DNA from: an uncultured Methanoregulaceae archaeon
GTDB lineage: Archaea; Halobacteriota; Methanomicrobia; Methanomicrobiales; Methanospirillaceae
Direction of reading: 5' to 3'
Length of the DNA: 64,000 nt
NCBI GenBank assembly: GCA_963705255.1
Contig: OY970061.1
Location: 224,001-288,000 of the forward strand
How positions within the stretch are numbered: the first letter of the stretch is position 1; each line of letters opens with the position of its first letter. Shown one piece after another: positions 9,373-49,282 of this stretch. Under the pieces are notes generated by a model. The model did not search any database. It worked only from the letters and a program-made list of their open reading frames with translations, and was not told the origin of the DNA. The translations under genes and the position numbers were made by a program.

Positions 9373-9734
9373 GACTTTGTTGGAACCCTATTTTTCTGAT
9401 CATTTGCTTATACTCTGCTGAGGTTAGGAGGGTAACCCCCTCTCTCAGGTCGCAGAACTCTGACGAGTTCTTCTCCAGTCTGCTCTTCCCTTCGGGAACA
9501 GCAGTCTCCCCGGAGGGGGAGGCAACCCAAGGGGAGCATCCCTTGAATCTCTGAGAGGTCTTCAGACCTCGAAGAGGAGAAGATTTACAAAGTAAATCTT
9601 CGACCCCATCGTTACTCATGGTAAAAGCAGACAATTCGAAGAACGCTGATGCGTTCTTCTCTTGTCTCCATGACTCCGTCATGTCGACACCCCCAAGAGC
9701 GACTGCATAGTTCTCTGAGGATTTCAACAAAGCC
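9373..9734. mobile_element. MITE copy A (IS903-like TIRs) with three nested hairpin cassettes
   Basis: Ends GACTTTGTTGGAACCCT / AGGATTTCAACAAAGCC; flanks ATAAAAAA / ATGAAAAA (7/8); colinear with 29924-30379 and the reverse complement of 48972-49224. Confidence 0.85.
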
Positions 9735-20779: not shown

Positions 20780-21156
20780 CCAACCTTATTTCACGATTTT
20801 TCCACAAAAATGGGGAGAGGCAGACATGAATCGATAGAGCTCACTCCGGAACCTTGAAAATCGTTCAGTTATGAGGGCTCCCCGCCTCAGGGCCTCTCCG
20901 AGGCACGGCGGGGCAAGGAGGTTGAACCGCCGCGGGGGCGCCCCGTCGGGGGCGGCGGCGTTCATCGCAACAATAAAAAGAGGGCTTATCTCCTGTGATA
21001 TCTGAATAACGCGACCCTCATAGGAAACGCCAGAATAATTTCGCGTACACCGGATTAAGATTCCCGACGGATTTTCACCGGTAAATCCTGACCGCTCGTA
21101 CTGGCATGGCAAAATCAGATTGATGCAGGTTGCGAACACCTCACCGTTCCTGCCCG

Positions 21157-29923: not shown

Positions 29924-30379
29924 GGCTTTGTCGAAACCCTATTTTTCTAATCATTTGCCTTGTACTCTGCGGTTAGGAGAGTGACCCCCTCTCTCAAGTC
30001 GAAGAACCTGTCGGTTCTTCTCCAGCCCGCTCTTCCCAGCGGGAACAGCGGTCTCCCCAGTAGGGGAAGGCAACGCAAGGGGACCATCCCCTTGAATCTC
30101 TGAGAGGTCTTCAGACCTCGAAGAGGAGAAGATTTACAAAGTAAATCTTCGACCCCGTTTTTTCGGGTTTTCCATCAACCTTCTGAGGAACTATCCTAAT
30201 ATGGGGGATGCCCTAGCGGCGGGGACTGCCGAAGGCAGTGGAGAAGAATTCGCCAGAATTCTTCGACTGCGGAGGGTCGAAGAACGCTGATGCGTTCTTC
30301 TCCAGCCTCACCTCACGTTTCGTGAGGTTCGTCACCCCCAAGAGCGACTGCATGTTTTTCTGAGGATTTCAACAGAGCC
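29924..30379. mobile_element. MITE copy B (IS903-like TIRs) with four nested hairpin cassettes
   Basis: Ends GGCTTTGTCGAAACCCT / AGGATTTCAACAGAGCC; flanks GAAAATTC / AAAAATCC (6/8). Confidence 0.85.
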
Positions 30380-35919: not shown

Positions 35920-36618
35920 TTATCCTAGCCCCGTCCGGAACAGATCGGCCGTTCTCTCCGGTTTCTTCCCGGTCAGCAGGAAGACGGTGAGCGCCCTCGT
36001 CCCCCCGCCGGGCACCGGTTTCAGGACAATTGCCGCGGTCTGGTTCCTGACCGATTCAAACCCTGCATCTTCCAGTTGTTTACGCAGGAGGCAGCGGTCG
36101 AACCCGGCATGGAAGACACCGGTATTGTCATCATGGAATGCTCCGCCGTCCGGATCAAGGTCCGCAACACAGAGAAGCCCGGAAGGTTTGAGAATCCGGG
36201 AAAACTGCCCGAGCAGCGGGCGGATGTCCAGGATGTGGTGGAATGTCATGCTGCTGACAACCAGGTCATACTGCCCCTCGAGCAGATCCCCTCGGTCAGG
36301 ATCCATGAGCCGGGTCTTCACGTTCTTCAGGCCCAGGCTGGAGATCTTCCTGTCGAGAATTTCCAGCATTCCCTGCGAACTGTCAACCGCAATGACAGAA
36401 CGGACTTCGGGCTGGAGCTCGAGGGTTAAGAGCCCGGTCCCGCAGCCGAAGTCGAGCACGTCCATATCGGGTCTGATCGCGATCGTCTCGCGGATGGCCC
36501 GGGCGACATCCTGTGCCATCTTCACCCGCCCCGGGTTCTCGTCCCAGGTTGCTGCTACGGAGTCGAAGTTGCGCTTCTCCCCGTTCACGGCATTGAAATC
36601 CCGTTTTTCGTCGCTCAT
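35920..36618 (-). CDS. Class I SAM-dependent methyltransferase
   Basis: LDFGCGTG, YDLVVSSMTFHH. Confidence 0.9.
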   Translation of the reverse strand: MSDEKRDFNAVNGEKRNFDSVAATWDENPGRVKMAQDVARAIRETIAIRPDMDVLDFGCGTGLLTLELQPEVRSVIAVDSSQGMLEILDRKISSLGLKNVKTRLMDPDRGDLLEGQYDLVVSSMTFHHILDIRPLLGQFSRILKPSGLLCVADLDPDGGAFHDDNTGVFHAGFDRCLLRKQLEDAGFESVRNQTAAIVLKPVPGGGTRALTVFLLTGKKPERTADLFRTGLG

Positions 36619-42309: not shown

Positions 42310-44201
42310 ATGACCGAAGACTTTGATGTCAGACTTACCGAGAAGCACTACATGCCCGACCCGTCCTACAAGCAGAACAGCTGGGTTGGTGACTATGCAA
42401 CGGTATACCGGGATTTCCTCCGGGACCCGGAACGGTTCTGGGACACTATTGCACGGGAGCTCCACTGGTTCTCCCCATACCGCAAAGTGAAGGAGTGGAA
42501 TTACCCGTACGCCCGCTGGTTCACCGGCGGCAAGACCAACATCACCTACAACTGCCTCGACCGCCACATGCAGAACTCACGGCGCAACAAGGTGGCGCTC
42601 ATCTGGAGAGGCGAGGATGATACCGAGCGGATCTACACCTACCGCCAGCTCTACCGCGAGGTGATGCGGGTTGCCAACGGCCTCAAAAAACTCGGGGTCG
42701 GGAAAGGCGACCGGGTCTGCATCTACATGCCGATGGTGCCGGAGCAGATCATATCGATGCTTGCCTGCGCCCGCATCGGGGTCGTCCACAGCGTGGTCTT
42801 CGGCGGGTTCGGGGCAGCGGCGCTCAACAGCAGGATCACGGGAGCCGGAGCCAAGGTTGTCATCACGGCCGACGTCACCTTCCGGCGCGGCAAGTCCATC
42901 CCGCTCAAGCACATCATCGAGGAGGCGATCATCAACGCCGAGACCGTCGAGCACGTCGTCGTTCTCCGGCGCGAGCAGCACCAGCCGGTCGAGATCCACC
43001 GCGAGATGGAGGTCGACTTCTACGACATGATCCGGGCGCCGGGGCTGACTGCGAACCCGAGGTCATGGACGCGGAAGACCCCCTCTTCATCCTGTATACC
43101 AGCGGCTCGACCGGGGCTCCGAAAGGGATCGTCCATACGTGCGGGGGGTACATGGTCGGAACCTACTACACCACAAAGAACGTCTTCGACATCAAGGACA
43201 CCGATGTCTACTGGTGTACCGCGGACCCGGGCTGGATCACCGGGCATTCCTACGTGGTCTACGGCCCGCTTTCCGTGGGTGCGACCATCATCATGACCGA
43301 AAGCACTCCCGATTTCCCCGACCCCGGGGTCTACTGGCGGATGGTCGAGGAGTTCGGGGTCACGATCCTCTACACAGCGCCGACAGCGATACGGATGTTC
43401 ATGAAGCTCGGGGAGGAGTGGCCGGGTAAATACAACCTGAGCACGCTGAGGATCCTCGGATCCGTTGGCGAACCACTCAACCCCGAGGCGTTCGAGTGGT
43501 ACTACCGCGTCATCGGGAAGGACCGCTGCCCGGTCGTGGACACCTGGTGGCAGACCGAGACCGGCATGCACATGGTGACAACCCTGATCGGGGAACCGAT
43601 GTACCCGGGGTTTGCGGGCAAGGCAGTCCCCGGCGTGGTCGCCGATGTCGTGGACAAAGACGGGAACTCTGTCCCGCCCGGAACCGGGGGTTTTCTCGTG
43701 ATCCGGGAACCCTGGCCTTCCATGCTCAGGACCGTATACAAGGACGACGACCGGTACAGGAAGGACTGGACAACGATCCCCGGGTGCTATGCAGTCGGCG
43801 ACCTTGCGGTCAGGAACAAGGAGGGCTACATCATGGTCCTCGGGCGGGCCGACGACCTGATCGTGGTCGCGGGCCACAACATCGGGACAGCCGAAGTCGA
43901 GAGTGCGCTCGTCTCCCACCAGGCTGTCGCAGAGGCTGCGGTCATCGGCAAACCGGATCCTGTGAAGGGAAATGTCATCAAGGCGTTTGTGATCCTCCGG
44001 GTCGGGCACATTCCCGGCGAACGGCTGAAAAACGAGTTGCTCTACCACGTGCGGATAACGCTCGGCCCCATCGCCATGCCCTCAGAGATCGAGTTCGTCC
44101 AGTCCCTGCCCAAGACCCGCAGCGGCAAGATCATGCGGCGGGTGCTCAAGGCCCAGGAGCTGGGTATGGACCCGGGCGACATCTCGACTCTTGAAGAATA
44201 A
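42310..44201 (+). CDS. acs: Acetyl-CoA synthetase (AMP-forming), frameshift near 43035
   Basis: [41 protein letters not shown]; one added G restores a single frame. Confidence 0.92.
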
Positions 44202-48006: not shown

Positions 48007-48971
48007 TGATCGGGATCGATGTCGGGGGCGCGAATCTCAAGGTTGTTGACAAAAATGGCGTCCACCTCCACTACTGCCCCCTCTGGGAGGAGGCGCCTGT
48101 CACGGACTACCTCCTGCGCTACGTGCAGGGGCCGGCCGATCCCGCGGCTGTCGTGATGAGCGGGGAGCTTGCCGACTGTTTTGAGAACAAGGCGCAGGGG
48201 ATCTCGTTCATCGTGGGTGCCGTGAAGGCTGCCTTTCCACGGGCGAAGTTCTATGGCACGGACGCCCGGTTCCACGATGGGGCAGCCCCGTTCCTTGCGG
48301 CTGCCAACTGGCTTGCCTCCGCGGACTACCTCAGGATACGCCACCCCGGCGCCGTCCTGCTGGACATCGGGAGCACGACGGCCGATATCATCCCCTTCGG
48401 GCGGTTCCCGGAACTGCACGACCTCACCGATCTCCTGCGGCTCCAGAAGGGATATCTCCTGTATACCGGCATGCTCCGCACGAACATCGCCACGCTCCTC
48501 CGGTCCGTGGATATTGAGGGTGTCTGGACACCGGTCAGCACAGAATATTTCGCCGCGAGCGCCGATGCCCACCTCGTCCTCGGGAATATCACGCCAGGAC
48601 AATACACCTGCGATTCTCCGGATCACCGGGAGAGGTCCCGGGAAGCATCGCTGCGGAGGCTTGCCAGGGTGGTCTGTGCCGACCTCGATGAGATTGGTGC
48701 GGAGGGAGCAGTTGAGATCGCCCGGCAGTTCTGGGATGTCCAGCGGGACCTGGTGTGTGGCCAGGTGAGAAAAGTCGCAAAGGATTCCCGTGCCCGGGAG
48801 ATTATTGTCGCGGGCATCGGGGCCCCGATTTTTGCCCGCGAACTGGGCGGCGCCGACCTCACGCAGGAACTGGGCCCTGCCGCCGATGCCCTGCCGGCGT
48901 TTGCCGTACGGGAGATCGCGGTGAGGGACGGGATATTTTCCGGGATAGGGAATAAAGAAAAAAGAGAATAA
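48003..48971 (+). CDS. mfnF: Hydantoinase/oxoprolinase-family protein of methanofuran synthesis
   Basis: GIDVGGANLK, MSGELADCF, AAANW, DIGSTTADIIP, RRLARVVCAD. Confidence 0.82.
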   Translation: MMIGIDVGGANLKVVDKNGVHLHYCPLWEEAPVTDYLLRYVQGPADPAAVVMSGELADCFENKAQGISFIVGAVKAAFPRAKFYGTDARFHDGAAPFLAAANWLASADYLRIRHPGAVLLDIGSTTADIIPFGRFPELHDLTDLLRLQKGYLLYTGMLRTNIATLLRSVDIEGVWTPVSTEYFAASADAHLVLGNITPGQYTCDSPDHRERSREASLRRLARVVCADLDEIGAEGAVEIARQFWDVQRDLVCGQVRKVAKDSRAREIIVAGIGAPIFARELGGADLTQELGPAADALPAFAVREIAVRDGIFSGIGNKEKRE

Positions 48972-49224
48972 GGCTCTGTTGAAATCCTCAGAGAAACATG
49001 CAGTCGCTCTTGGGGGCTCCAGCACTTCATGCTTCCGCCCCCGCCGCTCGGGCATCCCCCATATAGGGATAGTTCCTCAGAAGGTTGATGAAAACCCCGA
49101 AAAACGGGGGTCAAGGGGATGCTCCCCTTGGGATGCCTCCCCCGCTGGGGGAGAGAGGGGGTTACCCTCATAACCGCAGCAGTGTATAAGCAAATGATCA
49201 GAAAAATAGGATTTCAACAAAGCC
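48972..49224. mobile_element. MITE copy C (253 bp, cassette-free core, opposite orientation to A and B)
   Basis: 16/17 TIR GGCTCTGTTGAAATCCT / AGGATTTCAACAAAGCC; flanks GAGAATAA / AAGAATAA (7/8); abuts the mfnF stop codon. Confidence 0.9.
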
Positions 49225-49282
49225 AAGAATAAGGAAAAAAGCCTATGAACCTGTCGCCCGGCAGCGCAACCGGGGAACCTCC

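Follow-up and report, generated by a model that had tools for sequence, protein, structure and literature searches.

Double-hairpin cassettes in a Methanomicrobiales archaeon: an abundant, covarying family found inside and outside its host MITE

Short inserts that distinguish copies of a MITE (miniature inverted-repeat transposable element) in an uncultured Methanoregulaceae archaeon belong to a genome-wide family of non-coding cassettes, typically ~55 nt long, each made up of two unlike hairpins that follow one another along a single strand. They were found in a stretch of 64,000 nucleotides (assembly GCA_963705255.1, contig OY970061.1, positions 224,001 to 288,000 of the forward strand; hereafter the window) that holds MITE copies A, B, and C. 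Their structure, abundance, and covariation, their occurrence outside the MITE, the reassortment of their hairpins, their presence or absence at orthologous sites, and the lack of a Y1 HUH transposase gene in the genome are established here. The explanation toward which we lean is that the inserts are miniature, non-autonomous mobile cassettes, an archaeal counterpart of bacterial repetitive extragenic palindromic (REP) sequences and bacterial interspersed mosaic elements (BIMEs), which would be moved in trans by an enzyme and copied further whenever the host MITE transposes.

RESULTS

Seven inserts in two copies of a MITE

Copy B of the host MITE (29924..30379, plus strand), delimited by BLAST against the genome and by alignment to the empty copy C, is bounded by 17-bp terminal inverted repeats (TIRs), GGCTTTGTCGAAACCCT at 29924-29940 and GGCTCTGTTGAAATCCT at 30363-30379 (reverse-complemented). 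Copy C (48972..49224, minus strand, defined by alignment) is the cassette-free form of 253 bp, one of eight near-full-length empty copies in the genome. Copy A (9375..9734, plus strand, defined by BLAST and alignment to C) has a middle that is absent or replaced relative to C (deletion of C165-197) and is therefore not merely C with inserts. A first-pass annotation of the window had placed seven inserts in A and B, and BLAST of copy B against the genome and the alignment to C agree with its coordinates within 1-2 nt. Relative to C, copy B carries inserts at 29996-30054 (59 nt), 30096-30152 (55-57 nt), and 30225-30334 (110 nt), the last being two cassettes whose head-to-head arrangement, already described in that annotation, is confirmed by the alignment. 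The inserts of copy A lie at approximately 9447-9507, 9547-9603, and 9633-9688, the first two at sites that are filled in B as well.

The four cassettes of copy B run plus, minus, minus, plus, bearing out the claim that both orientations occur. B1 (29996..30054, plus) has the leader AAG, hairpin 1 at 29999-30022 with the inner stem ACC/GGT, and hairpin 2 at 30023-30054, a CTGCT-type stem with C/C and C/T mismatches; it is inserted at MITE position C85, immediately 5' of a CCCC-AGC-GGGG hairpin. B2 (30096..30152, minus), at MITE position C123, has hairpin 1 at 30126-30152 (TTTAC/GTAAA) and hairpin 2 at 30098-30125, which reads CTCT-TC-GAGGTC-TGAA-GACCTC-TC-AGAG. In B3 (30225..30268, minus), hairpin 1 at 30241-30266 (ATTC/GAAT) is accompanied by a short hairpin 2 at 30225-30240 (TGCC-TTCG-GGCA), and a 10-nt spacer separates it from B4 (30275..30334, plus), with hairpin 1 at 30277-30302 (ACGC/GCGT) and hairpin 2 at 30303-30334 (GCC-TC-ACCTCACG-TTT-CGTGAGGT-TC-GTC), which adjoins CCCCCAAGAGCG of the MITE. 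In copy A, A1 (9447..9507, plus) combines the leader AGG, hairpin 1 at 9450-9475 (ACTC/GAGT, with the variant foot TCGCAGA), and hairpin 2 at 9476-9507; A2 (9547..9603, minus) has hairpin 1 at 9577-9603 (TTTAC/GTAAA) and hairpin 2 at 9549-9576; and A3 (9633..9688, plus) has hairpin 1 at 9636-9661 (ACGC/GCGT) and hairpin 2 at 9662-9688 (TGTC-TC-CATGAC-TCC-GTCATG-TC-GACA). The five inner stems (ACC/GGT, TTTAC/GTAAA, ATTC/GAAT, ACGC/GCGT, and ACTC/GAGT) are as first read.

The frame shared by these inserts, TCGAAGA-N6-20-TCTTCTC, has six exact matches in the window against 0.01 expected, and none of 100 shuffles reached six. The seventh copy is the single GCAGA variant that had been noted (9450-9475), and it was recovered by a covariance model, R1, whose match lies at genome positions 233447-233478. 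Comparison of the shared sites upheld two further observations. At the last, hairpin 1 (ACGC) is common to A and B and hairpin 2 is unrelated (CATGAC... versus ACCTCACG...); at the first, CTGCT/AGCAG and CCGCT/AGCGG differ by a compensatory change of T-A to C-G. When four cassettes (three of B and one of A) were folded as single-stranded DNA (ssDNA), each formed two hairpins (z of -3.9 to -6.8), and none of 200 shuffles was equally stable.

Anatomy, covariation, and strand asymmetry

A cassette unit of 45-65 nt consists of zero to three leader bases (AAG, CAG, TAG, GA, and others), hairpin 1, a C, and hairpin 2, which directly follows hairpin 1 and falls into 50 sequence clusters. Both hairpins share a layout in which one to five outer pairs lead through a symmetric TC/TC internal loop to an inner stem capped by a loop of 3-4 nt. 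In hairpin 1, a pair is possible outside TC/TC, between the G preceding TCGAAGA and the C that comes after TCTTCTC, and the lower inner stem GAAGA/TCTTC is conserved below a variable top. In hairpin 2 the entire stem varies; three to five outer pairs are set apart from the inner stem by an internal loop that is TC/TC or at times C/C or C/T, and the terminal loops are sequences such as TGAT, TGAC, TGAA, and TTCG. The same hairpin design with different stem sequences was seen in genomes G019 and G042 (another genus).

The inner stem of hairpin 1 covaries strongly. With a search pattern that constrains the frame alone and not the inner stem, the copies showed a mean of 3.34 consecutive inner pairs, compared with 0.72 in shuffles (maximum of 0.92 in 200), and 45 different inner arms. 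In a set of 25 distinct 26-nt copies picked by frame only, 97.8% of cells were paired (versus 86.4%), double-change cells numbered 24 against 5.0 in shuffles, a count that 0 of 500 shuffles reached, and all four variable pairs varied on both sides; the covariation score of 0.315 compares with 0.086 for shuffled sets and at most 0.068 with the partner column slid. Selection for structure is a plausible reading of these data; alternatively, the arms could stay paired through templated correction of palindromes.

The two strands of the cassette are not equivalent. TC/TC was found in 104 of the 292 genomic hairpins that have a 2x2 internal loop, and every other type occurred at most six times. The complement of this loop is a pair of tandem G.A/A.G mismatches in a pyrimidine-GA-purine context, a motif that is stabilizing. 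Counted over 160 cassettes (hairpin-1 copies in the genome with a recognizable second hairpin), which share descent and are not independent events, the complementary strand was the more stable in 130 with RNA parameters and 149 with DNA parameters, as it was in four of four tool folds; on the TCGAAGA strand, the non-Watson-Crick positions of hairpin 2 were pyrimidine-pyrimidine in 151 cases and purine-purine in 8, and A.C mismatches outnumbered G.T by 33 to 17. Tandem G.A mismatches on the complement fit both its better folding and the excess of A.C over G.T, and the complementary strand is thus probably the one that is folded and recognized.

Abundance and independence from the MITE

The genome (G000), a single contig of 2,600,650 bp, contains 170 exact frames dispersed across the chromosome on both strands in even proportion (92 versus 78 copies), and its GC skew is flat; a relaxed, structure-checked rule identified 224 copies of hairpin 1. 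Model R1, trained on the 26-nt class, gave at least 132 matches with 150 of 2438 candidates scored; in genomes G038 and G090, with 150 candidates scored, it missed the short GAAGACC-type copies. Homology to MITE copy C was present within 60 nt of 43 of the 224 hairpins and within 150 nt of 63, leaving 161 farther than 150 nt from any such homology; counting the motif inside and outside MITEs, as had been proposed, shows that the family is not restricted to the MITE. Of the 160 cassettes, 18 lie between two unique flanks, 50 have one unique flank, and 92 are inside other repeats, and an identical 58-nt cassette is present in unrelated flanks. Long open reading frames (ORFs) are avoided, with 51 of the 224 hairpins in ORFs of at least 600 nt compared with 78% of random positions. 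Most hairpins are singlets or have same-strand neighbors; among close pairs (gap of at most 45 nt), 12 are head to head and 1 is tail to tail.

Several other sequences touch on the family. A tandem array of at least six copies of a 59-nt unit, outside the window at C1:360068-360481, has one true cassette at its end, and its units start with the TCGAAGA frame yet form no hairpin 1. A 167-aa ORF without a Pfam match (L096:344-847, genome C1:2469243-2469746) has a cassette-bearing 5' leader that recurs, through the first codons, near C1:2059459, and cassettes and small ORFs are unusually crowded in the surrounding 2469-2471 kb region. Another frame family, TCGAAGGTCGGC...GCCTCCCTTCTC, with a GAAGG/CCTTC foot, occurs genome-wide (e.g., C1:1452385 and 1429422, and C1:108387 of the congener G165); it is likewise seen as indels of 58-118 nt between G000 and G165, one of them within a hairpin 2 loop.

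Filled and empty sites and exchange of hairpins

Filled and empty sites, whose comparison the first-pass annotation had called for, are found both among paralogues and between orthologues. Within the genome, one or more empty paralogous sites were found for 37 of the 160 cassettes, and these cases span several host repeats and at least 10 site classes. For the MITE, the genome copies include every one of the four possible pairings of a filled or empty C85 with a filled or empty C123. The copy at 1206397, with C123 filled, has flanks 98.6-98.8% identical to an empty copy; in a tree of the backbone it clusters with the empty copies at 917557 and 1186686 (support of 0.98), and filled copies are interspersed among empty ones. 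Cassettes are also nested in one another, either within the 3' arm of another hairpin 1 (GTTC^TTCTC, where the caret marks the insertion point) or at a C/C mismatch of hairpin 2.

Between closely related genomes, cassettes are gained or lost as whole units. G165, a congener with 164 frames, is 94.7% identical to G000 across 825,117 aligned columns, a comparison that takes in 1.10 of the 2.58 Mb of G165. Among 45 indels of at least 28 nt, a strict hairpin 1 was present in 9 (5 extra in G165 and 4 in G000); a looser rule based on frames only, with the hairpin unchecked, flagged 18 of the 45, which is an upper bound that includes at least one chance match, and some further variants were called cassette-like by eye alone. 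The clean events include a 59-nt unit filled in G165 (GGGGCGC, then AG-H1-H2, then CCCCGCGG; G000:1099807), a 45-nt unit filled in G000 (CCGCCGTG, AC-H1-H2, CCCCGTAGGGG; G000:1409412), and a 51-nt unit filled in G000 (CGCCACCAG, AG-H1-H2, TCCCCCGA; G000:2043378). Within the window, position 20903..20904 (G000:244903) is empty in G000 (GCCGTG^CCTCGGAGAGG) and corresponds at C6:9143 of G165 to CCGCCGTG, a 53-nt cassette, and CCTCGGAGAGG, the cassette comprising a TCGAAGTTC variant and a second hairpin. The filled and empty states can be reciprocal: at one locus it is G165 in which the host repeat CGCCGCCGC^CCCCAACGGGG is filled with two cassettes, and at a second locus it is G000.

Two candidates were set aside. 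The 30 nt at 36556-36585, flagged by the looser rule, are present in G000 and missing from G165 as well as from run X2 and X3 contigs; they lie near the start of an ORF (35920..36618, minus strand), where they encode NGEKRNFDSV directly after the similar DEKRDFNAV, and were rejected as an in-frame, diverged tandem duplication of 10 codons within a gene. An apparently empty C85 at locus B of G165 was not counted as orthologous, the sequence past the left TIR being unlike the G000 flank; the G165 contig ends there within the MITE's left part.

The types of hairpin 1 and hairpin 2 are reassorted among cassettes, and single-site swaps were seen in which hairpin 1 changed with hairpin 2 retained and vice versa. 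At cassette B3 of MITE B, G165 retains hairpin 1 and has a different, longer hairpin 2, an orthologous case of module exchange. The earlier proposal that the hairpins are exchangeable modules is supported by both observations.

With its occurrence outside the MITE, the 18 cassettes between unique flanks, and the filled and empty sites, the cassette is a unit of its own, as had been suggested. The first-pass annotation had itself named an opposing view, in which the motif would occur only at fixed positions of one ancestral MITE and show no covariation, copy C would be a deletion derivative of a long MITE holding all of the hairpins, and the cassettes would be immobile. The eight empty copies could stem from one deleted ancestor; however, the 161 hairpins far from MITE homology, the further site classes in other host repeats, the four C85/C123 combinations, the interspersion of filled copies in the backbone tree, and the orthologous differences elsewhere in the genome, in both directions, together with the covariation, make this view extremely improbable.

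Distribution in Methanomicrobiales

The search of related genomes proposed in the first-pass annotation showed that the motif is abundant in few of them: 17 of 301 Methanomicrobiales genomes have at least 40 copies and most have 0-10, with a reversed-pattern control giving 0-4 matches. In the genus of G000, 11 of 49 genomes have at least 40 frames (maximum of 178) and most others have 0-7. Expansions also occurred in genera g12, g16, g3, g5, and g41, from three families.

These distributions bear on whether the hairpins are selfish DNA at all. They might instead be elements selected by the host, such as transcript stabilizers, attenuators, or protein-binding sites, for example sites for L7Ae-type proteins that bind tandem G.A motifs, and the covariation, the conserved tandem G.A-type internal loops, the UUCG-like loops, and the position of some copies immediately upstream of start codons are what such functions would lead one to expect. 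However, congeners have anywhere from 0-5 to 178 copies, presence or absence differs at orthologous sites between genomes 94.7% identical, and both orientations occur inside one element. Rfam 15 gave no match at gathering score (the best, snoR9, reached 20.4 bits versus 90 and lay outside the cassettes), and the symmetric 2x2 internal loop, lacking a 3-nt bulge, is not a kink-turn. We therefore regard a host function as improbable.

Insertion sites

The cassettes have no TIRs, and most clean events show no target-site duplication. In many cases the insertion point coincides with the 5' foot of a small G+C hairpin (^CCCC-loop-GGGG or ^TTCCC-GAA-GGGAA); examples are ^CCCCGTAGGGG, ^CCCCAACGGGG, ^TCCCCCGATGGGGG, ^CCCCAGCGGGG in the MITE, and ^TTCCCGAAGGGAA. 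Insertion at hairpin feet would explain the accumulation of cassettes in hairpin-rich repeats. The preferred following words are ^CCCC, ^TTCC, and ^TTCTCC, apparently with no fixed tetra- or pentanucleotide target, and donors and recipients frequently share ...CGC before and CCCC after the cassette. Microhomologies seen at junctions include TTC, CTC, TC, TCATC, and up to 7 nt of xTCGAAGA; several clean orthologous events had 0 nt.

Turnover of the host MITE

Within the genome, no autonomous insertion sequence (IS) with the TIRs of the MITE was found, every TIR pair lying at most 560 bp apart. Whole MITEs B and C are absent at their sites in a contig of run X4; the contigs of runs X1-X4 break at repeats, and this whole-MITE absence is what can be read from them. 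Whole MITE B is also absent from metagenome locus L012 (94-95% identical), and in 80 metagenome loci for the flanking gene, neither the MITE nor hairpin 1 was present at the copy-B site.

Loci A and C differ between G000 and G165 as well. At locus A (9375-9734 versus L252:2184-2373), the G165 junctions enclose a shorter MITE of the same TIR family in the opposite orientation, with a different inner make-up and a nested cassette form, which suggests, from the aligned junctions, replacement or re-insertion at one site. At locus C (48945-49229 versus L254), G165 has a truncated short MITE with one cassette and another repeat, of the CCGCCGCG...GGAGAGGCCCTGAGGCGGGG type; the run X4 contig has only 8 letters at this locus. 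Separately, contigs of runs X1-X3 join across ~540 nt at 43565-44106, where some G000 element is missing in related strains.

DISCUSSION

In the model that we prefer, a cassette would move as folded ssDNA, in a reaction catalyzed in trans by a structure-specific enzyme other than a PF01797-type Y1 transposase; it would insert at the 5' foot of small G+C hairpins or inside other cassettes, and its accumulation in MITEs and other repeats would give rise to REP/BIME-like mosaics. Two observations, namely that families differ in their drifting stems yet share the foot and the mismatch loop, and that copy numbers jump between congeners, lead us to place moderate confidence in trans-mobilization by a structure-specific enzyme. 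A bolder form of this model, a hairpin-cassette system independent of REP-associated tyrosine transposases (RAYTs), in which the tandem G.A/A.G foot would be recognized, folded ssDNA moved by a structure-specific enzyme of a class new to transposition, and hairpin feet targeted, such that the system would generate its mosaics itself and be carried along by MITEs, is offered only tentatively.

Several findings weigh against enzymatic mobilization. PF01797 had no match in G000, whereas the positive control gave matches in 6 of 14 reference genomes, and DUF559 (PF04480) had none either. Genes resembling tnpB number one or two per genome in hairpin-rich and hairpin-poor congeners alike, with no link to hairpin count; a TnpB-like ORF of ~253-256 aa is single copy in many congeners regardless of repeat load and has the look of a domesticated gene, not of a component of an active IS. 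No multicopy transposase ORF was found in G000, where the four ORF families with at least three copies are all ordinary (only glycosyltransferases, FdhB [F420-dehydrogenase paralogues, which are consistent with a methanogen], and P-type ATPases). Genes bracketed by cassettes include none that is nuclease- or transposase-like, comprising a histidine kinase, a rhodanese-like and a PMT_2-like protein, an antisense artefact, and two small ORFs that matched no family. In addition, junction microhomology ranges from 0 to 7 nt with no single rule; CCCC within 7 nt after the cassette (33 of 160, versus 1.7% of random positions) is a tendency only; and the counts of strands and mismatches carry the shared descent noted above. 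Gain is not distinguishable from loss without an outgroup, and gene conversion between MITE copies could be the source of the paralogous patterns.

These points lend some weight to a different process, with no dedicated enzyme, in which the cassettes spread by replication template switching together with gene conversion. A fork would stall at a stable hairpin, and the nascent strand would re-prime by microhomology at a different hairpin locus, copy one or two modules, and return, with the TCGAAGA/TCTTCTC feet and flanking C-runs as switch points. The failure to find a transposase candidate, the microhomology at many junctions, the similar flanks of donors and recipients (...CGC before and CCCC after), the insertions at hairpin feet, the exchange of hairpin 1 or hairpin 2 alone at one site, and the location of 92 of 160 cassettes inside other repeats would all follow. 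Template switching accounts less readily for the 18 of 160 cassettes with unique sequence on both sides and for the clean orthologous events with 0 nt of microhomology. Furthermore, the frame and TC/TC loop have been kept across genera and families while stems vary, where a passive process should lead to decay, and jumps from 0-5 to >100 copies between congeners are burst-like, as in a mobile element. We regard template switching together with gene conversion as the chief alternative, though a less probable one, and continue to prefer mobilization in trans.

The classical route for such hairpins is the one that the first-pass annotation had pointed to, namely mobilization by a Y1 HUH transposase, either a RAYT acting on classical REPs and REP doublets forming hairpins (REPINs) or a TnpA acting on the end hairpins of IS200/IS605 elements. 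The cassettes resemble these substrates in being small imperfect palindromes with two hairpins on one strand and conserved mismatches, in usually lacking a target duplication, and in their bias toward head-to-head doublets (12 close pairs versus 1 tail to tail), and IS200-type TnpA occurs in 36 of the 301 Methanomicrobiales. However, besides its absence from G000, PF01797 was not found in any of four hairpin-rich genomes (G019, G002, G022, and G038), and of the 17 genomes with at least 40 frames only G090 encodes it. The GTAG or CGTC tag is absent, and the excerpted text of PMC6006769 reports from Archaea only IS200-type TnpA-Y1 (subclass 1.1) and no RAYT class. Thus, this part of the first-pass annotation did not hold: PF01797-like Y1 mobilization is largely refuted, and the classical route as a whole is very improbable.

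Comparison with known repeats places the cassettes near, and outside, several described classes. REPINs and RAYTs have been described in bacteria (E. coli and Pseudomonas; PMC3116915, in the portion cited), and a survey whose main text, by term search, names no archaea covers REPs with a conserved GTAG or CGTC tag at one end of the palindrome (PMC3733652). Like REPs, the cassette hairpins are short (20-40 nt) imperfect palindromes of high copy number, mostly extragenic, with a conserved foot and variable top, inverted doublets, lineage-specific copy number, and polymorphic excision or insertion. They differ in lacking GTAG/CGTC, their invariant columns being TC-GAAGA...TCTTC-TC (GA-GAAGA...TCTTC-GA on the complement); in the cognate Y1 HUH gene being missing from a host that is an archaeon; and in a unit in which two unlike hairpins follow each other on the same strand rather than an inverted REP pair, inverted doublets being a minority here (12 close pairs among 224 hairpins). 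On three defining points the cassettes thus fall outside the REP/REPIN-RAYT system: they have no tag, their genome has no RAYT gene, and their predominant unit is not an inverted doublet.

Other small elements share individual features. MITEs moved by a DDE transposase have TIRs and a target-site duplication, and the cassettes have neither. Non-autonomous IS200/IS605 derivatives likewise have two subterminal hairpins on the same strand, conserved mismatches, no TIR, usually no duplication, and a loose sequence preference next to the insertion point; the cassettes differ in being ~55 nt long with almost nothing between the hairpins, in apparently having no fixed tetra- or pentanucleotide target, and in the absence of TnpA from the genome. 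BIMEs and BOX elements are clusters whose few hairpin and linker modules differ in their order and orientation and can be exchanged. Cassette mosaics are also modular with exchangeable modules, but cassettes insert in each other's stems, in a TIR-bounded MITE, and beside unrelated hairpins, and they have a grammar of their own, the TC/TC loop plus the GAAGA foot. Small dispersed repeats (SDRs) of cyanobacteria are ~21-27 nt, form hairpins, are nested in other mobile elements, and were revealed by filled and empty sites. The cassettes, also very small, hairpin-forming, nested, and found via filled and empty sites, differ from them in sequence, size, and host domain. SDRs are named in the cited portion of PMC3116915, and RepRanger, in the excerpted text of PMC12306157, counted generic palindromes in six archaea with no Methanomicrobiales among them. 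In the article texts searched, no description of the cassette family was found; the present analysis adds the cassette anatomy, the strand asymmetry, the order-wide RAYT test, and the orthologous gains and losses.

In sum, the present understanding of REP-type repeats extends only to those that have a RAYT, and the RAYT class is, in the excerpted text of the cited source, unreported from Archaea; here, an archaeal order has an abundant, structurally defined hairpin family that turns over between genomes at ~95% identity with no detectable Y1. The cassettes make up 9-18 of the 45 indels between G000 and G165 (30-120 nt), a noticeable share. They also break assemblies of Methanoregula-like genomes at repeats and can pass for genes of structured RNAs. 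The question of how these hairpins are moved or copied, and by what, becomes testable, with the conserved G.A/A.G-type loop and the strand asymmetry as a handle.

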